A DNA stretch of 64,000 nt from an uncultured Candidatus Rokubacteria bacterium (GTDB lineage: Bacteria > Methylomirabilota > Methylomirabilia > Rokubacteriales > DASRDR01), in the NCBI GenBank assembly GCA_963749975.1, contig CAVVOZ010000009.1, forward strand, positions 8,923-72,922, written 5' to 3'. Shown in pieces: positions 9,248 through 54,571 of this stretch. The notes below the pieces were generated by a model. That model was given only the letters and a program-made list of their open reading frames with translations, was not told the origin of the DNA and did not search any database. Position 1 is the first letter of the stretch, and each line of letters begins with the position of its first letter. Position numbers and translations under genes: made by a program.

Positions 9248-14061
<4,814 letters not shown>

Positions 14062-14089
14062 CGGGCGCCGTCCGCCGGAGGAGCCGGGC

Positions 14090-16030
14090 GTGTGCGGGAT
14101 CGCGGGCCGCCTGAACTTCCGCACCGGGGCGCCGGTGGACCCCGGCATCCTGCACGGCATGGGCGACCTCCTCGCCCACCGGGGCCCCGACGGCGAGGGG
14201 TTCTGGCACCAGGAGGCCGTCGGCCTCGCCCACCGCCGGCTGGCCATCGTCGATCTCAGCGACGCCGCGCGCCAGCCGATGACGGCCGAGGATCCGCGCG
14301 TCAGGGTCGTCTGCAACGGGGAGATCTACAACTTCCGGGAGCTGCGGATCGAGCTGGAATCGCGCGGACACCGGTTCCGCACGCGGTCCGACACCGAGGT
14401 GCTGCTCGCGGCCTACGCCGCCTACGGCATCGACTGCCTGTCGCGTCTCCGCGGCATGTTCGCGTTCGCGCTCTGGGACGGCGGCCGGCGCCGTCTCCTG
14501 CTCGCGCGGGACCGAGCGGGCAAGAAGCCGCTCTACTACCGGCTCGACGGCGACGGGATCGCCTTCGCCTCCGAGCCCAAGGCCTTCCTGGCGGACCCCT
14601 CCTTCGAGGTACGGCCGGACGTGGCGGCGCTGTCCGACTACCTCACGTGCCACTACGTACCGGCTCCCGGGTCGGCGTTCGCCGGCGTCCGGCGGGTCCC
14701 GCCGGCCCACTACCTGGTGGTGGAGGACGGCCAAGTGCGTCTCGAGCGTTACTGGCGCCTCCACTACCAGCCGAAGCGCCAGCTGTCGGAGACGGACGCG
14801 GTGGCGGAGCTCCTGGCGCGCCTCCGGGACGCCGTGCGCTGCCGGCTCGTCGCCGACGTCCCGCTCGGGGCGTTCCTGAGCGGAGGGATCGACTCGAGCA
14901 CCGTCGTGGCGCTCATGGCCGAGGCCGGCGCGGCCCCGGTCCGGACCTTCTCGATCGGCTTCGAGGAGCGGGAGTACGACGAGCTGCCGTACGCGCGGCT
15001 GGTGGCGCGCCGATACGGCACGGACCACCACGAGTTCGTCGTCCGGCCGGAGGCGGTCGACGTCCTTCCCCGGCTGGTCTGGCACTACAACGAGCCCTAT
15101 GCCGACTCGTCGGCGATCCCGACCTTCTACCTGGCCGAGCTCACCCGGCGTCACGTGACCGTCGCGCTGAACGGCGACGGCGGAGACGAGAACCTCGCCG
15201 GGTACCGGCGCCACCTGGCGGGCCGGCTCGCCGAGCGCTACGCGGGCCTCGCCCGCCCCCTCCAGCGGTCGCTCGCGGCGCTGCTCGCGGCCATTCCCGC
15301 GCCGGGACGCGGGATGACCTACGCGCGCCGGTTCCTCGCAGGGCTCGGCGAGCCGCCCGCCCGTCGCTACGCGCGCTGGGCGAGCCACCTCGATCCGGCA
15401 TTGAAGCGGGAGCTCACGACCGAGGACTTCCGCCGGGCGGCGGGTGACCGCGACTCCCTCGAGCATCTGACGGAGGCGTTCCGCCAGGCCGAGGGCGCCG
15501 ACCTGCTCGATGCCACGCTCGCGGGCGACGTCGAGACCTATCTGCCCGACGACCTGCTCGTCAAGGTCGACATCGCGACCATGGCGCACGGGCTCGAGGG
15601 GCGCTCGCCCTTTCTCGACCACGACGTCATGGAGTTCTGCGCCAGCCTGCCGTCCGATCTGAAGCTCCGGGGGCACACGACGAAGTACCTCTTGAAGCGA
15701 GCGGTGCGCGAGCTCCTGCCGGCCCCGGTGGTCGACCGGCCCAAGCAGGGCTTCGGCGTGCCGATCGATCGCTGGTTCCGCGGGGAGCTCCGCACCATGA
15801 TCCACGACGTGTTGCTGGACGCCCGGACGCTCCGGCGCGGCTACTTTCGCGAGCCCGTCGTGCGCCGCCTCCTCGACGAGCACGGGCGCGGCGTGCGGGG
15901 ATGGCACTCCCAGCTGTGGAGCCTCCTCGTGCTGGAGCTCTGGCACCGGATGTTCGTGGACCGGCGCCCCGCGGCGGGCCCCCCTCACGCCTCGGCCGTC
16001 GTCCGCGGGGCCGCGACCGCGGTGCCCTGA
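14090..16030 (+). CDS. asnB: asparagine synthase (glutamine-hydrolysing), AsnB/WbpS-like amidotransferase
   Basis: GTG 14090 followed by Cys2 (MCGIAG Ntn-GATase start), GGAGGAG RBS upstream. …LAHRRLAIVDLS…VCNGEIYNFRELR…SGGIDSSTVVALMAE… is the PP-loop synthetase domain. Confidence 0.85.
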   Translation: MCGIAGRLNFRTGAPVDPGILHGMGDLLAHRGPDGEGFWHQEAVGLAHRRLAIVDLSDAARQPMTAEDPRVRVVCNGEIYNFRELRIELESRGHRFRTRSDTEVLLAAYAAYGIDCLSRLRGMFAFALWDGGRRRLLLARDRAGKKPLYYRLDGDGIAFASEPKAFLADPSFEVRPDVAALSDYLTCHYVPAPGSAFAGVRRVPPAHYLVVEDGQVRLERYWRLHYQPKRQLSETDAVAELLARLRDAVRCRLVADVPLGAFLSGGIDSSTVVALMAEAGAAPVRTFSIGFEEREYDELPYARLVARRYGTDHHEFVVRPEAVDVLPRLVWHYNEPYADSSAIPTFYLAELTRRHVTVALNGDGGDENLAGYRRHLAGRLAERYAGLARPLQRSLAALLAAIPAPGRGMTYARRFLAGLGEPPARRYARWASHLDPALKRELTTEDFRRAAGDRDSLEHLTEAFRQAEGADLLDATLAGDVETYLPDDLLVKVDIATMAHGLEGRSPFLDHDVMEFCASLPSDLKLRGHTTKYLLKRAVRELLPAPVVDRPKQGFGVPIDRWFRGELRTMIHDVLLDARTLRRGYFREPVVRRLLDEHGRGVRGWHSQLWSLLVLELWHRMFVDRRPAAGPPHASAVVRGAATAVP

Positions 16031-16036
16031 CGCCCG

Positions 16037-17075
16037 GTGGGTCCCGTCGGCGTCGCGTTCGTCGTCTCGCTGGCTGTCGCGCTCGTCGCCACGCTCGCCT
16101 GCGAGCGAGTTGCCCCCCGGCTCGGGCTCGTCGTCGCGCCCCGGGCGGACCGCTGGCACCGCCGGCCCGTGGCGCTCCTCGGCGGCGTGGCGATCATGCT
16201 CGGGGTCCTGCCGGCGCTGGTCTGGGCCGGCGGCGGTCTCCGGGGTCGCCTCGCCGAGCTGACGCTCGTCGCCCTCGCGATGGGGACGGTGGGCCTCGTG
16301 GACGACGTCCGGCCGCTGCGTCCGCCGGTCAAGCTGGTGGCCCAGATCGTCCTCGCGGGCCTCCTGGTGGAGCGCGACTTCGTGCTGCGGCTCACCGGGG
16401 TGGCCGTCCTCGACGTGGTGCTGACCCTGATCTGGGTGGTCGGCATCACGAACGCGTTCAACCTGCTCGACAACATGGACGGCCTGGCTGCCGGCATGGC
16501 GGTCATCGCGGGAGGATTCCGGCTGGCCCTCTTCCTCTTCGACGGGGACCTGGCCGCGGCGACGATGACCGCAGGGTTCGTCGGGGCGGTGGTGGGCTTC
16601 CTCGTGCGGAACGCCCCGCCGGCCCGGATCTTCATGGGCGACGCGGGGAGCCTCTTCCTCGGCTTCTTCCTGAGCGGTCTCTGCCTCGTCGTCGACGCCG
16701 CGTACTACTCACGCGGGATCACCGCGGTGCTGGCGGTGCCGGTGCTGCTGGTGCTGATCCCCATCTTCGACACCACCTTCGTGACGGTCACGCGGCTCCT
16801 CCGCGGGCAGCCGGTCTCGCAGGGCGGGCGCGACCACACCTCGCACCGGCTGGTGGCGCTCGGGGGCAGCGAGGGGCGGGCCCTGGCCGTGCTCTACGGG
16901 CTGTCGATCATCGGGGGGGGCGTCGCGCTCCTCACGTACCGGGCCGATCTCGGGACGGCCGTGGTCCTCCTCCCGCTGCTCCTGGTGGGGCTGACGCTCC
17001 TCGGGATCCACCTGAGCCAGGTCGAGGTCGTGCGCGCGGGACCGGCGGCCCCCGGGCCGGGCGGCCGTCCGGCTC
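16037..17075 (+). CDS. glycosyltransferase family 4 polyprenyl-phosphate N-acetylhexosamine-1-phosphate transferase (WecA/WbpL-like); 3' end uncertain
   Basis: VGITNAFNLLDNMDGLAAG…IFMGDAGSLFLGF is the MraY/WecA family motif. There is no in-frame stop before the next gene; frame 2 stays open to 17959. The true C-terminus is near the last TM helix, so a terminal frameshift is possible. Confidence 0.7.
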
Positions 17076-17804
17076 GTGCAGGACTTCCCGTACAAGCGCG
17101 AGGTGGGATCGGTGGCCCTCGATTCGGTCCTCATCGTGGTCGCCTACTACGCGGCGTACCTCCTGCGCTTCGAGGACACATTCGCGGCCAACAAGCCCAT
17201 GCTGATCCGCACGCTGGCGCCGGTCCTCGTGTGCCAGCTCTCCGGGCTGGCCCTCTCGGGGGCGTACCGGGGGATGTGGCGATACACGGGCCTGGGGGAC
17301 GTCCTGCGGCTCGGGCGGGGGATCACGCTGGGCACCGTGGCGAGCGTCCTCTACCTCCTGTTCACGACGCGGTTCGCCGGCCTGTCGCGCGCCGTGTTCG
17401 TGCTCGACTGGGTGTTCCTCGCGATGCTGGTCGGCGCGAGCCGGGTGTCGTTCCGGCTGCTCGGCGAGGCGCTCCGGGCGCCCCGCGCGCGGCCCGGCCG
17501 GTGCTCGTCTACGGTGCGGGCGACGGCGGGGAGCTGGCGCTCCGGGAGCTCCGCAACAACGCCGCGCTCGCTCGGGACGGCGTGGGGTTCATCGACGACG
17601 ACCGGGCGAAGGCGGGCACGCGCATCCACGGGGTGCCCGTGCTGGGCCCGCTCGACGAGCTCGAGGCGCTGCTGCGGGCGCACCCGGTCGAGGAGGTCGT
17701 CGTCGCCTCGCGCAAGATCCCGACCGAGCGGCTCCGTCGCCTGGAGGCGAGCCTGCGCCGCGCACGGGGTGGTGGTGCGGCGCGCATCGATCGAACTCGA
17801 GTGA
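17076..17804 (+). CDS. membrane protein with CoA-binding Rossmann-like domain, homologous to the N-terminal module of PglF/WbpM/CapD or WbaP but lacking any catalytic domain; two frameshifts (~17485, ~17757)
   Basis: GTG 17076. VQDFPYKREVGSVALDSVLIVVAYYAAYLLRFED plus 4 TM helices are in frame 3. VLVYGAGDGGELALRELRNNAALARDGVGFIDDDRAKAGTRIHGVPVLGPLDELEALLRAHPVEEVVVASRKIPTERLRRLEA is in frame 2. The tail ACAAHGVVVRRASIELE* is back in frame 3. Confidence 0.5.
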   Translation: MQDFPYKREVGSVALDSVLIVVAYYAAYLLRFEDTFAANKPMLIRTLAPVLVCQLSGLALSGAYRGMWRYTGLGDVLRLGRGITLGTVASVLYLLFTTRFAGLSRAVFVLDWVFLAMLVGASRVSFRLLGEALRAPRARPGRCSSTVRATAGSWRSGSSATTPRSLGTAWGSSTTTGRRRARASTGCPCWARSTSSRRCCGRTRSRRSSSPRARSRPSGSVAWRRACAAHGVVVRRASIELE

Positions 17805-17876
17805 GCGTGGAGCCGCCGCCCACGCGGCGGGCGCGCGTCCGGGTCACGGGGATCGCCCCGGACACGGAGCGCGTCC
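17574..17876 (+). repeat. diverged direct repeat A (3' end of the CoA-binding-module gene plus a 35-bp segment of a UDP-sugar dehydrogenase N-terminus)
   Basis: 17574-17804 is ~85-90% identical to 20112-20342. 17842-17876 (ggtcacggggatcgccccggacacggagcgcgtcc) matches 20543-20577 with 3 mismatches. Confidence 0.7.
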
Positions 17877-17922: not shown

Positions 17923-19689
17923 TCACTCGGCGGCCCGAAACAGCTCCTCGCCGCGCTGAAGACGCAGCGCAATCTGGTACGTCTGACGCAGCGCCCGCGG
18001 GGTCGGGCTGTGCGCCGCCTGGAAGCGCGCCAGGGCGACCAACGCGCGGCGAGCGGACGCCGGACGTGCGGCCTTGAGAGCCCCATACTGGCGCAGCGCG
18101 CCCTCCAGCTCCTGGTAGTCGTGGAACCCCGCGTCCTCCCGCAGGACGGCACGGCCGAGGCTCTCGATCATCGGCCGATCGTCGCGGCCGGGCCGGAGGT
18201 AGGCGTCCACGAGGCGGCCAGCGGAGGTCACCTGCTGCTCTCGATCGAGGAGCTCCAGCAGAGCCGCCGGCGCGTCGGCCGCCCCCGGCGGGACGGCGTC
18301 GACGGGCTCCTCGTCGGGGAGGCGGGTCGGCGGCACGTTCAGGAACCGATCCAGGTAGATCCTCATCGCGGCGTGGAACAGCCCGCGCGCCAGCTCGCGC
18401 GAGGGCGCTCGGAGCAGCGCCTGGTGGAGGGCGTTGCACGAGCTGAACGTGTTGTGGACGGTGTCCCAGTCGCCGAACTCGTTGCTGGTGGGGAACCGGG
18501 CGATCCGGAGGCTGCTGGCATGCGCCACGGCCTGGCCGAGCTCCGCGAGGGCGGCTCCCCGGCGCACGGCCATGAGGAGCCCGTCGACGATGGACTGGGG
18601 CTCGTCTCCCAGCAGAACCGCCACGAGTTCGTCGAATTCACCGGCGCGCAGCGGTGCTCCGCGGCTCGCCTCGTCCTCGGCGAGCGCCCCGAGCGTCTCG
18701 AAGGCGGGCTCCAGGAGGGCGGTCAAGTCGATCGGCCGCCGCCACGCGCTCCGTTCTTCGCTTCGCTCAGCGCGACACAGGCCGCTCACGACGCTCGGCA
18801 AGATCGCCGGCGCCTCGGTCCAGTCGAGATGATCCAGGAGCTCGAAGGCCTTGACGATGAAGTCCAGCGTGTGGCCGGCCTCGACGAAGTAGTGGTCGGT
18901 GACGGCCGCGAACAGAAGATCGGCCACGGCGGCCGGCGACGCCGTCTCGATGGCCGTGCGGAGCGCCCGCTCGGCGCCGTCCGCATCGCGTACCTCCACC
19001 GCGTCCCGGAACCAGGCTTTCAGCCGGGCCGGCGGTAGGCGGGTTGTGGGCAGGGGGTCGACACCGAAGCGCGGCGGCCGTCCGGCGCAGTCCTCGGCCA
19101 CTCGCACGAGCCCGTGGAAGAGCGCGAGCGGCCGCTCGTCCGCGCCCAGCATTGGCAGGACATTCGCCATCGCGGTCAGGATGCTGAGGCCGGGGCCCCA
19201 GCCGGCGGCGCGGTAGCGGGCACCGAAGCGGGCCCCCGCGCGCACGATCTCCCGGAGATCGGCGCCTCCGGCAACGAGGGCGAGGGCGGCCTTGGCCAGC
19301 CCGAGGGCGAGCTGGTCCTCCAGCCCCTGCTCGAGCCGGCGCCGCCACTGCGCTGCCAGATTACCGTCCGGGCTCACCTCGACGAACACGTCGCCGCCTT
19401 CGATGACCGTCGGATAGGGCCGCACGTCCCCCGCGAAGGGATCCAGGGTCCCGCCCGAAGCCAGGTCGAATCGGGCGTGATGCCAGTGGCAGGTCAACAA
19501 CCCGTCACGCACCGTTCCCCGGCTGAGCGGAAAGCCCATGTGCGGGCAACGGTTGTCCACCCCCCACGCTTGGCCCTCGTGCCAGAATACAGCCACGCCG
19601 TGACCGCCGGTGCTGACGATCAAGCACCCCTTCGCCTTCAGTTCGTCGACGGAGCCCGCGCGGACCAGGCGGGACTTGGCCTCACTCAT
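17923..19689 (-). CDS. Rieske [2Fe-2S] domain protein with ~470-aa C-terminal domain of unknown function
   Basis: ATG at 19689 with a GAAGGGGGG purine tract upstream. MSEAKSRLVRAGSVDELKAKGCLIVSTGGHGVAVFWHEGQAWGVDNRCPHMGFPLSRGTVRDGLLTCHWHHARFDLASGG carries the CxH…CxxH Rieske ligands. The remainder is helical with no recognised family. The track ORF 17923..20178 over-extends the N-terminus. Confidence 0.7.
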   Translation of the reverse strand: MSEAKSRLVRAGSVDELKAKGCLIVSTGGHGVAVFWHEGQAWGVDNRCPHMGFPLSRGTVRDGLLTCHWHHARFDLASGGTLDPFAGDVRPYPTVIEGGDVFVEVSPDGNLAAQWRRRLEQGLEDQLALGLAKAALALVAGGADLREIVRAGARFGARYRAAGWGPGLSILTAMANVLPMLGADERPLALFHGLVRVAEDCAGRPPRFGVDPLPTTRLPPARLKAWFRDAVEVRDADGAERALRTAIETASPAAVADLLFAAVTDHYFVEAGHTLDFIVKAFELLDHLDWTEAPAILPSVVSGLCRAERSEERSAWRRPIDLTALLEPAFETLGALAEDEASRGAPLRAGEFDELVAVLLGDEPQSIVDGLLMAVRRGAALAELGQAVAHASSLRIARFPTSNEFGDWDTVHNTFSSCNALHQALLRAPSRELARGLFHAAMRIYLDRFLNVPPTRLPDEEPVDAVPPGAADAPAALLELLDREQQVTSAGRLVDAYLRPGRDDRPMIESLGRAVLREDAGFHDYQELEGALRQYGALKAARPASARRALVALARFQAAHSPTPRALRQTYQIALRLQRGEELFRAAE

Positions 19690-19877
19690 CCGGTCGCCCC
19701 CCTTCAGGGAATGGTACCCCGACAGGACCTCACTCGGTTCCGCCCGCCCCGCGCGGCGGGGCGTCGCTTCGCGCCGGCCTCCACCCAGCCCCGGCGCGAG
19801 CCGCTGCCCGAACTCGCCACCGAGCGGTCCATCGTCCGGTGTCGGACGGACCCGGAGATCCGTTGCCCGCCACGCCG

Positions 19878-20090
19878 TTACGGACGGTCGATGGTGAGAT
19901 CCCGCCGGGCCGGGCCGATCGTCACGGTGAATCCGGCGATCAGGTCGAGGAAACTCGTGACGGTGAGCACCAGGAAGACCCCGGCCCCGGCCGCGTTGAC
20001 CAGCAGAAATTCGGTGAGGTAGGCGGCGAAGACGCCATCGTGGATTTTCCTCCACGCGGCGCTCCCGAACGGCGGCGCAGAGGCTCGCAC
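19878..20090 (-). CDS. small hydrophobic ORF (70 aa), possible membrane peptide or gene remnant
   Basis: MRASAPPFGSAAWRKIHDGVFAAYLTEFLLVNAAGAGVFLVLTVTSFLDLIAGFTVTIGPARRDLTIDRP with a TAA stop. It lies 190 bp upstream of the Rieske gene on the same strand. No family recognised. Confidence 0.25.
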   Translation of the reverse strand: MRASAPPFGSAAWRKIHDGVFAAYLTEFLLVNAAGAGVFLVLTVTSFLDLIAGFTVTIGPARRDLTIDRP

Positions 20091-20111
20091 CGCACCGTCC
20101 CTGGGCGACCC

Positions 20112-20342
20112 GGGACGTGCGGGGGTTCATCGACGACGACCGCACGAAGGCGGGCACGCGCATCCACGGGGTGCCCATGCTGGGCCCGCTCGACGAACTG
20201 GAGGCGCTGCTGGGGGCGCACCCCGGTCGAGGAGGTCGTCGTCGCCTCGCGCAAGATCCCGACCGAGCGGCTGCGCCGTCTCGAGGCGACCTGCCACGCG
20301 GAGGGGGTGTTGATGGTGCGCGCCTCCGTGCGCCTCGAGTGA
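20112..20342 (+). pseudogene. diverged second copy of the 3' end of the CoA-binding-module gene (direct repeat B, part 1)
   Basis: …GFIDDDRTKAGTRIHGVPMLGPLDELEALLGAHP / VEEVVVASRKIPTERLRRLEATCHAEGVLMVRASVRLE* is split over two frames. It has no N-terminal membrane domain. Confidence 0.5.
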
Positions 20343-20414
20343 GGAGCCGGCCGCTAACGGCGAGGCCGGCGCTTCCTTGACACCCCGCAAGGGGCCGTCA
20401 ATAATGACGCGGCG

Positions 20415-20699
20415 ATGACGAACACGGCGCCCCTGGGGGCGTTGGGAGCGCGCTTAACCGACGGACGTGCGGCGATCGGTGTGGCCGGGCACGGCTACGT
20501 GGGGCTGCCCTTGGCCGTGGAGCTTGCGCGCGCAGGATTCTCGGTCACGGACATCGCTCCGGACACGGAGCGCGTCCGGAGCGCCGGCCGGGATGAGAAC
20601 CACGTCGAGTGGCTCGTGACGCACGCCCGGCTCGTGTTCGACACGCCGAACGCCACGCGCGACGTCAGAGTGGCTCGGACCAGGGTCGTCCGGCTCTGA
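20415..20699 (+). pseudogene. N-terminal remnant of a UDP-sugar 6-dehydrogenase (TviB/WbpO/Ugd family)
   Basis: IGVAGHGYVGLPLAVELARAGFSVTDIAPDTERVRSAG matches the NAD-binding N-terminus (GxGYVGL…) of UDP-sugar dehydrogenases. It degenerates after ~60 codons and contains repeat B part 2 (20543-20577). Confidence 0.45.
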
Positions 20700-20716
20700 C
20701 CGGCGCGAGGGCGCGT

Positions 20717-21689
20717 GTGCGAGCGCTGGTGACGGGCGGGGCCGGGTTCATCGGGTCGCACCTCACGGAGGCGCTGCTCGCGGCCGGCCGCGAGGTGGTC
20801 GTCCTGGATGACCTCTCGACGGGGCAACTCGGGAACCTAGCGGGCGTGGCGGGTCACCCCCGTCTCGAGGTGGTCGCGGGGTCGGTCACCGACGAGACCC
20901 TCGTGCGGAAACTCGTGACCGGAGCCGACCTGGTCTACCACCTGGCGGCCGCGGTCGGCGTGCGGCTGATCCTCGATCGGCCGGTGGCGACGATCGAGAC
21001 CAACATCATGGGGACCGAGACCATCCTCCGGGCGGCGCTCGAGGGGCGGCCGCGCGTGGTCCTGGCTTCCACGTCCGAGGTCTATGGCAAGAACGACCGC
21101 GTGCCCCTCTCCGAGGACGACGACCGGCTTCTCGGGCCCACGACGAAGAGCCGCTGGAGCTACGCGTGCTCGAAGGCGATCGATGAGTTCCTAGGGCTGG
21201 CGTACCACCGCGAGCACGGGCTGCCCGTCACCATCGTCCGCTTCTTCAACACGATCGGACCCCGCCAGACGGGCCGGTACGGCATGGTGGTCCCGCGCTT
21301 CGTGCGCCAGGCGCTCGACGGAGGTCCGATCACGGTCTACGGCGACGGCTGCCAGTCCCGGTGCTTCACGGACGTGGAGGACACCGTGCGCGCGACGATC
21401 GCGCTCTCGCTGGCCCCCGCGGCGGTCGGCGAGGTGTTCAACGTGGGGACCACGCACGAGCTGACGATCCGGACGCTCGCCGAGCGCGTGCGCGCGCTGG
21501 CAGGCAGTGACTCACCGATCGTGCTCGTGCCGTACGACGAGGCTTACCAGCCGGGGTTCGAGGACCTGCACCGGCGCGTGCCGGACATCCGGAAGGCGGA
21601 GCGCGTGGTCGGCTACCGGCCCCGCGTGCCGCTCGACGAGACCCTCCAGCGTGTGATCGGCCATCTCCGCGAGCACCGGCCGCAGCTAG
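20717..21689 (+). CDS. NAD-dependent epimerase/dehydratase (TviC/WbpP/UXS-like extended SDR); 3' end uncertain
   Basis: GTG 20717. [36 protein letters not shown]…ASTSEVYG…YACSK…FFNTIGPRQ…GDGCQSRCFTDVED. Homology ends near …LQRVIGHLREHRPQ, but the frame has no stop until 21991. TAG at 21687-21689 is in the adjacent frame, suggesting a terminal indel. Confidence 0.7.
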
Positions 21690-21707
21690 GGAGGAGAGCG
21701 CCGCCGC

Positions 21708-22584
21708 GTGTTCGGTGCCTTGGTCGCCTCGCTCAGGCCGCGCCAGTGGACCAAGAACCTCTTGGTCTTCGCGGGCCTGATCTTCTCGCGGGGCCTCCAC
21801 GAGCCGGCGCTGGTGGCCCGCTCGGGGCTGGCATTCGCCCTCTTCTGCCTCCTCTCGGGGGGCGTGTACCTGATCAACGACGTGGTGGACGCCGAGCGCG
21901 ACCGGGCGCACCCGCAGAAGCGGCACCGCCCCGTCGCCTCGGGCCGCCTGCCCGTGGGGATCGCGCTGGTGGCGTGGGGTCGGCGTCCTGATCGGGACCG
22001 CGGCGGCCGCCTTCTTCCTGTCGGTCTCCTTCGGGATGGTGGCCGTCGCGTACGCGGTCCTGCTCACCGCGTACTCGGCAGGGCTCAAGCACGTGGTCAT
22101 CGTGGACACCCTGATCATCGCGGGCGGGTTCGTGCTGCGCGCCCTGGCCGGGGTGGTCGTGCTCGGGATCGAGCCCTCCTACTGGCTCCTCCTGTGCACG
22201 ATCCTGCTCGCCTTGTTCCTGACCTTCGGCAAGCGGCGCCACGAGCTCCTCGCGCTGGAGGCCGGCGCGACCGACCACCGCCCGATCCTGTCGGAGTACA
22301 CGCCGCAGCTCCTGGACCAGATGATCGCGGTGGTGACCGCGTCGACCTTGATGGCCTACGCGCTCTACACCATGGCGCCGGAGACGCACGTGCGGCTGGG
22401 GACGACGCGCCTGCCGCTCACGATCCCGTTCGTCCTCTACGGGATCTTCCGCTACCTCTATGTCCTCTACCGCCACGACCTGGGGGGCAACCCGTCCGAG
22501 CACTTCCTGACGGACCGGGCGCTCTTGGTCGACGTCGCCCTCTGGGGCGCGACGGTCATCGTCGTCCTCTACGTGGCGCCGTAG
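21708..22584 (+). CDS. UbiA-family prenyltransferase, decaprenyl-phosphate phosphoribosyltransferase-like; 1-bp frameshift ~21965
   Basis: GTG 21708. MFGALVASLRPRQWTKNLLVFAGLIFS…YLINDVVDAERDRAHPQKRHRPVASGRL is in frame 3. It continues …VGVLIGTAAAAFFLSVSFGMVAVAYAVLLTAYSAGLKHVVIVDTL…YVAP* in the ORF 22036..22584 frame. Confidence 0.7.
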
Positions 22585-22594
22585 CGCCCGGCGT

Positions 22595-23224
22595 CTAAGG
22601 CACGGCGACGCCGAACGCCCGCTCGAAGAGCGACCCCACGAGCCACCCGACCAGGGCGGAGCCCAGCGCGACGGAGGCGAACTCGAGGCCGGACCGCAGG
22701 AGGGGGCGGCCGGTGAGGATCCCCTTCAAAATACCCACGCCCAGGAGCACCGCGACCGAGAGCGCCCAGGAGAGGGGCAGGGCGAGCCAGCCCCCCAGCA
22801 GCACGAGGGGGGCGAGGGGAATGGCGGCACCGATGACGAAGGAGAGAAACATCACGACGCCAGCCTTCACCGGCTGGGAGATGTTGGCCGATCCGAGTCC
22901 GAGCACCTTCTCCTGGACCGTGCGGACCAGGAGCTCCCGGTGCCGGGAGAAGATCTGGACGACGCGATACGCCGAGGGGCGGTCGAGCCCTTCCCCGACG
23001 AGTGACTCGAGAAGAGCCTCCTGCGCCAGATACGGCTGGGCTGCCGCCAGCCGTTCCTGGTCGAGCAGCTCCTTCTCGAAGATCTCCTTCTCGGTCCGTG
23101 CCCCGAGGTACGAGCCCGTCGCCATGGAGACGCCGCCCGTGATGGCCGCGGCGATGCCCGTCAGGAGCACGATCGTCCGGTTCTGGGTCGCGGCCGATAC
23201 GCCGCTCAGGAGCCCGACCGTGCT
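22595..23224 (-). CDS. VIT1/CCC1 (vacuolar iron transporter) family membrane protein, N-terminally truncated/possibly pseudogene
   Basis: …[50 protein letters not shown]…GILKGILTGRPLLRSGLEFASVALGSALVGW matches VIT TM1-TM5. The region that should encode the N-terminal cytoplasmic segment overlaps the intact 3' end of the ABC ATPase gene and does not match. The nearest internal start is GTG 23170. Confidence 0.4.
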   Translation of the reverse strand, partial: STVGLLSGVSAATQNRTIVLLTGIAAAITGGVSMATGSYLGARTEKEIFEKELLDQERLAAAQPYLAQEALLESLVGEGLDRPSAYRVVQIFSRHRELLVRTVQEKVLGLGSANISQPVKAGVVMFLSFVIGAAIPLAPLVLLGGWLALPLSWALSVAVLLGVGILKGILTGRPLLRSGLEFASVALGSALVGWLVGSLFERAFGVAVP

Positions 23225-23946
23225 CAGAGGATCTTGCTCAGGAAGGCCTGCGTCCGCGGGTTCTGGGGCCGGTCGAAGATCTCCCCAGGCGAGCCCGCCT
23301 CGACGACCCGGCCCTCGTCCATGAAGACGACGCGGTGGGCGACCTCGCGCGCGAAGCCCATCTCGTGGGTCACGACGAGCATCGTCATTCCCTCGCGCAC
23401 GAGCTGCTTCATGGCGTCCAGGACCTCCCGGACGAGCTCGGGGTCCAGCGCCGACGTGACCTCGTCGAACAGCATGAGCTTCGGCTGCATGGCGAGCGCC
23501 CGCGCGATGGCCACGCGCTGCTGCTGGCCGCCGGACAGCTGCCCCGGGTAGGCGTCCACCTTCTCGGTGAGGCCCACCTTGTCGAGCAGCCGGAGCGCCT
23601 CCTGGCGCACCTCGGCCTCGGGCCGCTTGCGGACGACGATCGGCGCCAGCATCACGTTGCGGAGCGCGGTGAGGTGAGGGAACAGGTTGTAGGACTGGAA
23701 GACGATCCCGACCTCCGCGCGGACCTGGCGGATGTTGGTCCGGTGATGGTCGAGCCGCACGCCGTCGATCCAGATCTCGCCCGACTGCACGGGCTCGAGA
23801 TAGTTGAGGCACCGGAGCAGCGTGCTCTTGCCGGAGCCGCTCGGCCCGATGACCACCACCACCTCGCCGCGCGCGACCTCGAGGGTCACGTCGTCGAGGA
23901 CGTGGAGACGACCGAAGTACTTGTGGACGTGGCTGATCTTAACCAC
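23224..23946 (-). CDS. polar amino acid ABC transporter ATP-binding protein (GlnQ/HisP-like)
   Basis: Walker [10 protein letters not shown], signature [15 protein letters not shown], Walker [14 protein letters not shown]-terminal …[10 protein letters not shown]. Confidence 0.9.
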
Positions 23947-24613
23947 CGAGCTTGAGCCTCCGCTCCGAATAGAGCGCCAGACGCGACAGGGGGTAGCAGA
24001 TGGCGAAGTAGAGCACCGCCACGATTCCGAACACCTGGAAGGACAGGAACGTCTTCTCCATGAGGATCTGGCCCGCGCGGGTGAGCTCGATGTAGCTCAG
24101 CACCGAGACGACGGACGAGTCCTTGACGAGCCCGATGAAGAGCCCCACACCGGGCGGGATCATCACCCGCAGGGCCTGCGGGAGGACGATCCACCGCATG
24201 ATCTGGACGTACCCCATCCCGAGGCTCCGCGCCGCCTCCCACTGGTCCCGTCCCACCGACTGGATCCCCGCCCGGACGATCTCCGCCATGAAGGCGCTGC
24301 CGTTGATGACCAGCGCGGCGACCCCCGCCCAGAATATCGGCACCTCCACCTTCAGGAGAATCGGGAGCGCGAAGAAGATGACGTAGAGCTGCATGAGGAT
24401 CGGCGAGTCGCGGATCACCTCGATGTACGCCGCCGCGGGCACCCAGAGCCAGGGCCGCTTCGACCCGCGGGCGAGCCCGACGGCGAAGGCGATGACGGAT
24501 CCGATCACGAGCCCGAGCGCGCAGAGCCGCAGCGTGTTCCAGAGCCCCTGGGCCAGGAGCAGGGCGTCCCAGAGGTTCAGCTGATCCTGGACGAAGTTCG
24601 GGACGTTGCCCAT
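23939..24613 (-). CDS. amino acid ABC transporter permease (HisM/GlnP family)
   Basis: 224 aa, 5 TM helices, EAA-like loop …[27 protein letters not shown]…. Confidence 0.85.
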
Positions 24614-24614
24614 C

Positions 24615-25283
24615 TCAGGCGGCCTGCCGGAACATGCGCCGACCCAGGAGCTTGAGCGCGGTGGAGATCGTGAGCGTCATCACGACGTACATCGCGGTCA
24701 CCACGATGTAGGTCTCGAACGACCGGAAGTTGCGGGAGATGATCATCTTCCCGCGGAGCGCGAGGTCCTCCACCGCGATCACCGACACCAGGGAGGAGAA
24801 GAGGACGATGCCGACGAACTGGTTGCCGAGGGGCGGATAGATCACGCGGAACGCCTGCGGGAAGATCACGTGGCGCATGCGCTGCGGGTAGCTCATCCCG
24901 AGCGACACGCTCGCGTCGTGCTGACTCTTGGGGATGGCCTCGATTCCCGCCCGCACGATCTCGGTCAGGTAGGCGCCGTTGTTCAGCACGAGGCCGATGA
25001 GGGCGGCCAGGTAGTTGGGGACGTCGATGCTGAGCTGGCCGAGGCCGAAGTAGATGAAGAAGAGCTGGACGAGGAGGGGGGTGTTGCGGACCGCCTCCAC
25101 GTACCAGGTGGCCGGGCGCCGGAGCCACGCGATCCGCGACAGCCGGCACATGGCGCCGAGCGTGCCGATGACGAGGCTCAGGACGAGCGTGAAGAGCGAC
25201 AGGTGGAGCGTCGTGAACGCCCCCTCGAGGAGCGAGGGAAACTCCTGGAACACGAGCCGGAACTGGAAGACGTAGCCGGGCAC
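24615..25283 (-). CDS. amino acid ABC transporter permease (HisQ family)
   Basis: 222 aa. …SVSLGMSYPQRMRHVIFPQAFRVIYPPLGNQFV… is the EAA motif region. Confidence 0.85.
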   Translation of the reverse strand: MPGYVFQFRLVFQEFPSLLEGAFTTLHLSLFTLVLSLVIGTLGAMCRLSRIAWLRRPATWYVEAVRNTPLLVQLFFIYFGLGQLSIDVPNYLAALIGLVLNNGAYLTEIVRAGIEAIPKSQHDASVSLGMSYPQRMRHVIFPQAFRVIYPPLGNQFVGIVLFSSLVSVIAVEDLALRGKMIISRNFRSFETYIVVTAMYVVMTLTISTALKLLGRRMFRQAA

Positions 25284-25367
25284 GGGACGTCAGGGTATCG
25301 GGCGGGACCGCCGGGGCGGTGCCGTCCGGAGCGGGATCCCGCTCCGGACGGCGGGCCCGGGGACCGA

Positions 25368-26192
25368 CTACCAGCTAGGGGAGACCCTGGCCGGCTCGGC
25401 GTTGAACCACTTCTTGTAGAGCTCCTTCATCTTGCCGCTCTGGTGGAGCTTGTAGATGTAGAAGTTCAGGAAGTTGAGCCACTCCTGGTCGCCCTTGCGC
25501 ACCCCGAAGGAGTACGGGTTCAGATCGAACGGCTTCTCGATGAACCCGAGGCTCTTCTTGGGTCGCGGCCCGCGTGGTAGACGGTGTAGGTGTAGTCCTC
25601 GATCTGCGCGTCCGCCTTGCCCTGCTGGACGGCGAGGAGGGCCGCCGAGGCCTGGTCGAACCGAAGGATCTGTGGCCTTCGGCGCCTTCTGCGTCAGGAG
25701 GATCTCGCCGGTGGAGCCGGTCGTGACCGCGACCTTCTTGCCGTTCAGGTCTCGCCAGTCCTTGATCTTCGACGCCTTGTTGTAGATGACGCCGAAGCCG
25801 TCGATCACGTAGGGCTCGGTGAACGTGATGGTCTTCGAGCGCTCGACCGTCGCCGTGAAGTTCGAGATGGCGACGTCGATCTTGCCGGCGACCAGGAAGT
25901 TGATCCGGTCCGGGGCGGTCGGCACCGCCACCAGGGTGAGCTTCACCTTCATCTGCTCGGCGAGATCCTTCGCGATGTCGACGTCCATCCCGACGATGTT
26001 GTTCTGAGCATCGCGGAAGCCCCAGGGAGGAAAGAAGTCGAACGTCCCGACGATCAGCTCGCCCCGCTTGATCACCGACTGCAGCGTGTCCTGCGCCGCT
26101 GGCGCCTGCGCGCTTCCGGTGCTCGGCCAGAGGGCGAGCGCCAGAAGTCCGATCACCGCCAGAGCCCCGATCCGTTTCCTACTCCAGGTCAT
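25368..26192 (-). CDS. periplasmic polar amino acid-binding protein (SBP_bac_3); two compensating frameshifts at ~25570 and ~25676
   Basis: Signal peptide MTWSRKRIGALAVIGLLALALWPSTGSA, then …GELIVGTFDFFPPWGF…VGMDVDIAKDLAEQ…. Between the two indels the alternative frame reads QILRFDQASAALLAVQQGKADAQIEDYTYTVYHAGRDP, which is authentic SBP sequence. Confidence 0.75.
   Translation of the reverse strand: MTWSRKRIGALAVIGLLALALWPSTGSAQAPAAQDTLQSVIKRGELIVGTFDFFPPWGFRDAQNNIVGMDVDIAKDLAEQMKVKLTLVAVPTAPDRINFLVAGKIDVAISNFTATVERSKTITFTEPYVIDGFGVIYNKASKIKDWRDLNGKKVAVTTGSTGEILLTQKAPKATDPSVRPGLGGPPRRPAGQGGRADRGLHLHRLPRGPRPKKSLGFIEKPFDLNPYSFGVRKGDQEWLNFLNFYIYKLHQSGKMKELYKKWFNAEPARVSPSW

Positions 26193-51772: not shown

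Positions 51773-54571
<2,799 letters not shown>

Follow-up and report, generated by a model that had tools for sequence, protein, structure and literature searches.

A Rieske protein gene in a Rokubacteria genome

The window analysed here is a 64,000-nt stretch of the genome of an uncultured Candidatus Rokubacteria bacterium (contig CAVVOZ010000009.1, positions 8,923 to 72,922). Our subject is one gene within it, at 17923–19689, which encodes a Rieske [2Fe-2S] domain fused to a large helical domain. The reading frame is complete (588 codons and a TGA stop), and its coding strand is the minus strand, which the initial annotation of this DNA had left unstated. The ATG start codon occupies positions 19687–19689 and is preceded, with a 7-nt spacer, by a ribosome-binding site, GAAGGGGGG (19697–19705, minus strand), read directly from the sequence. 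The product is identical to database protein P0001 (NCBI/ENA). Given the family matches described below, the open reading frame (ORF) is a genuine gene, well beyond chance. All peptides quoted in the initial annotation were found in the translation: CPHMGFPL at amino acids (aa) 48–55, CHWHHARF at aa 67–74 and, in the helical region, ILTAMANVLPML... at aa 170–206 and HYFVEAGHTLDF... at aa 266–290.

The Rieske ferredoxin-type domain spans aa 8–106 (19372–19668, minus strand, like all parts of the gene given below). It has the Rieske beta-sandwich fold, and Pfam model PF00355 matches aa 10–82 with an expectation value (E) of 5.6e-13 and 49.1 bits, against a cut-off of 20.3. The predicted cluster ligands lie in two motifs, C48-P-H50 (19540–19548) and C67-H-W-H70 (19480–19491), and all four residues are invariant (242/242) in our alignment of family sequences. 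Searches of NCBIfam and of PDB sequences place the domain nearest to free Rieske ferredoxins and NirD-type proteins, the PDB relatives including BphA3, the naphthalene dioxygenase ferredoxin and T4moC. The motifs read CPHMGF and CHWHH and are without the disulfide cysteines of the bc1/b6f type (CxHxGC...CxCH), which points to a low-potential Rieske domain of the ferredoxin/oxygenase type with a predicted [2Fe-2S] cluster. The N-terminus, MSEAKSRLVRAGSVDELK, as read from the sequence, contains neither a twin-arginine motif nor a hydrophobic stretch. The PF00355 score and the invariant ligand motifs thus bear out the initial annotation in calling a Rieske domain here. It was also right to set the protein apart from bc1/b6f subunits: a high-potential Rieske subunit is ruled out, since the extra cysteines, a membrane anchor and a twin-arginine translocation signal are all absent.

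A duplicated helical domain with a distant resemblance to DUF4243

The remainder of the protein, aa 111–588 (478 aa), has no match in Pfam even at E ≤ 10, in NCBIfam or among PDB sequences. These searches used 1, 17 and 63 family members for Pfam, and phmmer together with two family profiles for the PDB. Neither Pfam nor NCBIfam holds a model for the domain, which leaves 80% of the protein length without a Pfam model. The initial annotation could not assign this region and proposed hidden Markov model (HMM) searches as the check; these came back empty, with no characterised family and no known oxygenase domain matching. A Bet v 1/START-like catalytic domain (Ring_hydroxyl_A and relatives) is absent from the protein, and there is no 2-His-1-carboxylate motif in the arrangement typical of Rieske oxygenases, whose iron site is linked to the Rieske cluster through a conserved Asp; the candidate His/Asp residues are H273, H439/D and H523. 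A Rieske oxygenase alpha subunit, already thought unlikely in the initial annotation, is ruled out by the wrong catalytic fold.

AlphaFold2 predicted a beta-rich Rieske domain followed by an all-helical fold of 23 helices, in keeping with the helical character first proposed for this region. The full-length model, built from a 51-sequence alignment, reached a mean predicted local distance difference test score (pLDDT) of 93.8 and a predicted template modelling score (pTM) of 0.93; the helical domain alone, modelled from a separate 17-sequence alignment, reached 91.6 and 0.92, respectively. Only two structures aligned globally with the modelled helical domain, BTG13 (7y3w, a questin oxidase) and PaD (8z4q, a hydroquinone dioxygenase), each with about 10% identity; family profiles found no match in the sequences of either. 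BTG13, PaD, GedK and BruN are DUF4243 proteins, all-alpha non-heme-iron dioxygenases that cleave hydroquinones and use four histidines, a carboxylated lysine and water as iron ligands; PaD has 22 helices (PMC12173810, PMC11371914, PMC11575538). The modelled helical domain has the same all-alpha architecture of about 22 helices. It differs from DUF4243 in its low identity, in the lack of a PF14027 match, in being fused to a Rieske domain and in a first histidine that is only partly conserved. Known DUF4243 members are mostly fungal enzymes of secondary metabolism, described only since 2022, whereas the family described here is bacterial and archaeal and is not clustered with pathway genes. Having no HMM match and no carboxylated-lysine position, the window protein is not DUF4243 as presently defined.

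When aa 111–345 were aligned with aa 346–588 by hhalign, using profiles derived from the family alignment, a 144-column local alignment was obtained (E 1.4e-4) that matches W164 to W408 and H192 to H439. The helical domain is therefore an internal tandem duplication, and it contains two modules resembling MgsA_C. The global alignment of the two halves is ambiguous in its second part. As delimited by hhalign, Pfam mapping of homologues and conservation, the first half (18655–19359) carries W164, H192 and a module at about aa 236–310, and the second half (17926–18654) carries W408, H439 and a module at about aa 485–575. The MgsA_C model, PF12002, gives sub-threshold matches in 14 of 63 homologues (best E 5.6e-5; gathering cut-off 27 bits), in two separate regions; in homologue P0138 the match maps to the module of the first half, and the window protein itself has no PF12002 match. 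In PF12002 coordinates, R241 and R492 fall at profile position 9, A262 and A514 at position 31, H273 and H523 at most two positions apart, and D276 opposite Q526. The equivalence of H273 and H523 is supported, not proven, by the register of the local alignment and the transitive mapping through MgsA_C, and should be accurate within 2 residues. In the model, one helix of the first module presents H273, D276, K280 and E283 on the same face; the second module bears E518, D519, H523, Q526 and E529, with H523, Q526 and E529 sharing one helix face. The modules have the five-helix post-AAA+ fold of MgsA_C. The C-terminal domains of MgsA/RarA and of clamp loaders are the closest known counterparts of these modules; the window protein differs in that it has no AAA+ ATPase domain and its modules are doubled within a larger, catalytic-looking domain.

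A candidate metal site

Four histidines, two in each half, stand out as candidate metal ligands from their conservation and, for the first and third, from the internal repeat. H192 (19114–19116) is His in 56% and Gln in 25% of weighted sequences; H273 (18871–18873) is His in 98%; H439 (18373–18375), the repeat partner of H192, is His in 71% and Asp in 27%. The fourth candidate belongs to the motif H523-D-Y-Q526 (18112–18123), also placed by the MgsA_C mapping, in which H523 is His in 98% and Q526 is Gln in 100% (242/242) of family sequences. Thus, roughly one family member in four has Gln in place of H192, and a similar share has Asp in place of H439; both are ligand-like substitutions and count in favour of a metal site. 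The iron ligands of PaD are H63, H166, H317, H394 and K397 (PMC11371914), and those of BruN are H63, H166, H308, H386 and carboxylated K389 (PMC11575538). Numbered within the helical domain, the candidate residues are 82/163/329/413(+416), compared with 63/166/317/394(+397) in PaD; the order is identical, the spacing similar, and a His-x-x-X motif occurs in both. The residue three positions after H273 is Asp (D276), and that after H523 is the invariant Gln.

About 30 further polar residues of the helical domain are near-invariant, among them E311, E312, R395, N403, D407, W408, R448, N451, E518, D519 and R555. Mutual information with average product correction, which has low power on 242 sequences (effective number about 127), gave weak coupling: R196–Y525 stands at rank 16 among 168,490 pairs, and H439 is coupled to L188, Y267 and L528. 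These signals weakly tie together the four histidine-bearing helices.

Distribution of the family

Among 5.8 billion proteins searched, more than 7,900 matched, and the top 120 matches were all full-length, with 56–100% identity. Databases annotate the top matches only as ‘Rieske (2Fe-2S) protein’ or ‘nitrite reductase/ring-hydroxylating ferredoxin subunit’; the latter label is misleading. The helical domain alone, compared with 1.84 billion representatives of 50%-identity clusters, gave 1,633 matches, of which 265 reached E ≤ 1e-30. With few exceptions, the complete matches begin at about residue 110–130 of proteins of about 585 aa, so fusion to a Rieske domain is the rule. We found no literature description of this architecture, of a link between Rieske domains and DUF4243, or of a Rieske-containing extension of extracytoplasmic function (ECF) sigma factors.

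When one genome per species was scanned, at least 597 species of Bacteria and Archaea were found to carry a relative at around 50% identity. The closest among the matches listed is from a Candidatus Rokubacteria metagenome-assembled genome (84% identity). The other hosts, at 46–56% identity, include many Chloroflexota (Dehalococcoidia, Thermomicrobia, Nitrolancea), cyanobacteria (Nostoc, Fischerella, Scytonema), haloarchaea (Halogranum, Halogeometricum and a Haladaptatus plasmid), Gemmatimonadota, Armatimonadota, Poribacteria and Actinomycetota, and Planctomycetes turned up in a later search. Most of the host taxa are aerobes (cyanobacteria, haloarchaea, Thermomicrobia), which we count in favour of a redox enzyme. 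Some genomes carry paralogues. In one Dehalococcoidia genome two family copies (loci L021 and L027) lie on a single contig, CBDBDT010000002.1, and such paralogy is common in that group. A divergent member with 33% identity, P0212, carries Gln at both 273 and 523 and Leu at 526 and, judged by these residues, is a second lineage without the candidate site, outside the sigma-factor fusions described next.

Fusions to sigma factors and cyclases

The Rieske–helical module recurs in fusion with two kinds of signalling output. In 14 clusters (775–870 aa, 53–68% identity) an ECF sigma-70 factor (r2 and r4 regions) is fused to its N-terminus, and in 28 clusters (705–762 aa, 54–88% identity) a class III adenylate/guanylate cyclase is fused to its C-terminus. 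Both kinds occur as continuous ORFs in several independent assemblies. The sigma fusion seems to be a type of ECF C-terminal extension not described before. Pfam finds neither a Sigma70 r2+r4 domain nor a class III cyclase domain in the window protein.

The two kinds of fusion treat the candidate site differently. Every conserved site residue is kept in 28/28 cyclase fusions, with H273, H523 and Q526 intact and Asp at position 439 throughout. For the sigma fusions we compared 12 complete sequences at the 75 positions with a family-wide conservation of 95% or more. H273 is kept in 8 of the 12 (p 4e-5), Q526 in 9 (p 8e-5) and H523 in 10 (p 6e-3), and non-conservative relaxation is limited to these three positions. 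The other significant deviations are the conservative D45E and A574V and a change at R241, which is kept in 10/12 (p 6e-3), the two exceptions being one Gly and one alignment gap. Since the relaxation is confined to 273, 523 and 526, the three positions act as one functional unit. Some sigma-fused copies can do without this unit, as would be expected of sensors that descend from an enzyme.

In L085 (1519–6885), one sigma-fused copy shares an operon with a SnoaL-like gene, a gene of unknown type and, last, a stand-alone paralogue; further sigma-fused loci are L087 (6001–8523) and L088 (6001–8328). Elsewhere, sigma fusions adjoin SRPBCC/polyketide-cyclase-like, O-methyltransferase and nitronate-monooxygenase genes. 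These neighbours hint, if weakly, at aromatic small-molecule metabolism. Among the cyclase fusions, one has a MerR gene divergently upstream (L086, 789–2993), and another has DUF2330 and cupredoxin genes downstream (L089, 5001–7250).

The insertion and its surroundings

The Rieske gene lies in a glycan locus. To its left are a PMT_2/TPR glycosyltransferase and an epimerase (within the 10405–14061 reading frame), an AsnB-type asparagine synthase of 741 aa (13805–16030, plus strand) between the epimerase and the next gene, and a transferase with GT4 and CoA_binding_3 domains, starting at 16037. To its right are a remnant of a UDP-glucose/GDP-mannose dehydrogenase gene (Ugd; 20415–20699), of which about 45 residues of the NAD-binding N-terminus match Pfam, an epimerase (within ORF 20609–21991), UbiA (within ORF 21708–22598) and, on the opposite strand, VIT1 (22595–23812).

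A direct repeat of about 235 nt, in copies 91–94% identical, encloses the gene together with the 420 nt upstream of it (19690–20110), a region that belongs to the inserted segment and runs from the gene start to the right repeat copy. The repeat consists of the 3′-end of the GT4 gene and the start of the Ugd region. The left copy (17573–17810, plus strand) is the true 3′-end of the GT4/CoA_binding_3 gene and has a 1-nt insertion relative to the related locus L001; the right copy (20111–20350, plus strand) is an orphan duplicate with a different 1-nt insertion. An additional 50-nt match joins the flanks (17827–17876 and 20528–20577). The GC (guanine plus cytosine) content of the insert, 0.724, is no different from that of its flanks.

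In L001, which encodes a 92%-identical protein, the Rieske gene occupies the same place without the right repeat copy and without the asparagine synthase, where a 77-aa gene is found instead. Its Ugd is a 159-aa C-terminal fragment, unlike the N-terminal remnant in the window, so the Ugd gene has decayed differently in the two genomes after the insertion. Another Rokubacteria genome (L005, 84% identity) shares only the nearby asparagine synthase gene, about 5 kb from its Rieske gene. Thus, an ancestor of this clade received the Rieske gene as an insertion between GT4 and Ugd, and the direct repeat looks like the duplication scar of this event. The initial annotation had placed the gene inside a glycan locus on an apparently inserted segment, and the surrounding genes, the flanking duplication and the opposite orientation of the gene all agree with this.

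The annotation had also proposed to check the conservation of gene neighbourhoods. When the neighbours of homologues at 84 loci were clustered, none was conserved across them. The commonest were short-chain dehydrogenase/reductase (SDR; 13 loci), luciferase-like (12) and 2-hydroxyacid dehydrogenase (10) genes, SDR lying directly upstream in five Dehalococcoidia loci and adjacent downstream in L068. All three were rejected as partners, as each association falls within related lineages and reflects lineage synteny. Because no common neighbour extends beyond a clade, the glycan context is incidental. Thus, the original proposal of a candidate redox enzyme or sensor stands, and the part that took the glycan locus as a clue to function does not. 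The gene moves alone, with no conserved partner, and some genomes carry it as paralogues, which fits a self-sufficient enzyme.

Proposed function and alternatives

Rieske-dependent oxygenases are a major class of enzymes in aromatic degradation and natural-product chemistry, and to our knowledge all that are known use the same Bet v 1-like catalytic fold. The reading we favour, and to which we give about as much credence as doubt, is that the window protein is a soluble, self-contained redox enzyme with two centres, whose module has been reused as a sensor input in some lineages. H192, H273, H439 and H523, two from each half, together with Q526 would form a mononuclear metal site, probably of iron, at the centre of the pseudo-dimer, homologous to the four-histidine site of BTG13 minus its carboxylated lysine. 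A general cellular reductase would reduce the Rieske cluster, which in turn would deliver electrons to the metal site or re-reduce it. The reaction may be an oxidation that requires O2 and acts on a small molecule, probably resembling a hydroquinone or a phenol, or on a reactive oxygen species (ROS), so that the protein would work like a Rieske oxygenase on a different catalytic fold, with a function unrelated to the surrounding glycan genes. Elsewhere the module would serve as a signal-input domain, with the site intact in cyclase fusions or partly degraded in ECF sigma fusions.

Several known systems resemble parts of this scheme. Rieske oxygenase alpha subunits (naphthalene dioxygenase, KshA, DdmC) likewise join a low-potential N-terminal Rieske domain to a larger domain, and the transfer from Rieske cluster to mononuclear iron to O2 is the logic proposed here too. 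The protein plausibly works like a hybrid of a Rieske oxygenase and a DUF4243 enzyme. Free Rieske ferredoxins (BphF/BphA3, the naphthalene dioxygenase ferredoxin, T4moC, the carbazole dioxygenase ferredoxin) are another counterpart, except that here the ferredoxin is covalently fused to its presumed client; a further analogy is offered by ferredoxins of the XylT type, which re-reduce inactivated dioxygenase iron. 2Fe-superoxide reductase (desulfoferrodoxin) likewise joins a small N-terminal iron-sulfur electron-transfer domain to a domain whose mononuclear iron, of His4 type, reacts with an oxygen species. The folds are unrelated, and this is a mechanistic precedent by analogy only. With respect to ECF factors with ECF41/ECF42-type extensions and sensor cyclases, sister sub-families carry exactly this module, while the window protein has no output domain.

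A number of observations weigh against the enzyme. The putative His4(+Gln) site is derived from ligand order, spacing, conservation and internal symmetry only. Histidine at 192 is found in only about 56% of weighted sequences, the co-occurrence of H192Q and H439D was rejected as covariation evidence because it does not rise above the phylogenetic background (corrected mutual information, MIp, z 1.2), and the carboxylated lysine of BTG13, PaD and BruN corresponds to Gln526, as placed by position and motif. PF14027 matched neither the window protein nor 63 homologues at E ≤ 10, and the top 50 Foldseek matches in the PDB were Rieske matches only, BTG13 not being among them. Known DUF4243 enzymes are single-domain and need no external electrons (PMC12173810), so a role for a Rieske domain would be unprecedented in DUF4243. 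No reductase gene is linked to the Rieske gene. Finally, the recurrent sigma and cyclase fusions, with the site intact in 28/28 cyclase fusions, fit a sensor at least equally well.

That the module is primarily a sensor of redox state, of O2/ROS or of a small aromatic ligand, the stand-alone protein regulating through protein contacts, is the most serious alternative, and we consider it rather unlikely. Fusion to two unrelated outputs, ECF sigma factors in 14 clusters and class III cyclases in 28, with all site residues retained in the latter, speaks for it, as do the TetR or MerR genes that adjoin some copies and the lack of a conserved metabolic operon. A stand-alone regulator would, however, need a partner, and none is conserved beside the gene at the 84 loci; the characterised structural relatives are all enzymes, and Rieske ferredoxin-type domains are established as electron carriers, not sensors. 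Moreover, H273, H523 or Q526 is lost in half of the sigma fusions and never in stand-alone proteins, which is the pattern expected of a sensor derived from an enzyme, and the L085 operon, in which a sigma-fused copy accompanies a stand-alone paralogue, suggests a sensor/enzyme pair.

Two further explanations give the protein a narrower task. It could be an electron carrier only and have no second active site, the helical domain acting as a scaffold or for oligomerisation, much as MgsA_C mediates tetramerisation in RarA, and bringing the Rieske ferredoxin into contact with other enzymes by docking. This is improbable: about 30 invariant or near-invariant polar residues, kept across Bacteria and Archaea, go beyond the needs of a scaffold, and the global structural match is to dioxygenases, not to MgsA. 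Still further down we would place a tailoring oxygenase of the surrounding glycan or polyprenyl-sugar pathway, such as a sugar or lipid-carrier hydroxylase, which is highly improbable. The gene does sit between the GT4/CoA_binding_3 glycosyl-1-phosphate transferase and the Ugd remnant, epimerase and UbiA, and its 92%-identical relative occupies the same place. Yet its orientation on the opposite strand, the duplicated GT4 3′-end at its bounds and the degraded Ugd alongside speak of an insertion scar rather than an operon, and homologues in more than 80 other genomes stand in unrelated contexts with no glycan gene in common.

If the two-centre enzyme is the correct reading, what is new is a Rieske-coupled non-heme metal chemistry on a different fold, with a candidate site that we infer from sequence. 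We suggest, more tentatively than for the enzyme itself, that the family may represent a previously unrecognised, third way in which a Rieske cluster and a mononuclear non-heme metal are structurally coupled, here through a pseudo-dimeric His4(+Gln) site of BTG13 fold without carboxylated lysine. The module would be reactive towards O2, ROS or quinones; hundreds of aerobic species of bacteria and archaea would use it as a stand-alone enzyme, and it would provide ECF sigma factors and class III cyclases with a new class of sensory input domain. A Rieske domain wired to a BTG13-like metal domain would widen the class of Rieske oxygenases, and the reach of BTG13/DUF4243 would grow from fungal secondary metabolism to prokaryotes, in at least 597 species that include cultivable Nostoc, Fischerella and haloarchaea. 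Through the sigma and cyclase fusions the signal or substrate could be approached by direct tests, and these fusions may define a new iron-sulfur input domain in bacterial signalling.

Other features of the window

The GT4 gene of the window has an extra G near 17751 compared with L001, 54 nt before the normal stop at 17804; its ORF therefore ends only at 17959, with 37 nt lying over the 3′-end of the Rieske gene. In the orphan repeat copy a different 1-nt insertion occurs near 20222. The two insertions are either real frameshifts or assembly errors. No RNA element of Rfam was found in the window. A near-consensus sigma-70 promoter lies at 20377–20405 on the plus strand (TTGACA, 17 nt, AATAAT; 11/12 matches; 0.0 in shuffled sequence), where the DNA has 73% GC and the Ugd remnant, epimerase and UbiA genes follow a short way downstream. 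At about 23224–26192 on the minus strand the GC content is 0.657–0.69, compared with 0.73–0.75 elsewhere. This segment contains an amino-acid-type ATP-binding cassette transporter operon (ATPase, two permeases and a periplasmic binding protein) and is possibly a horizontal acquisition. The GC content dips again, to 0.678, at 52001–54000.

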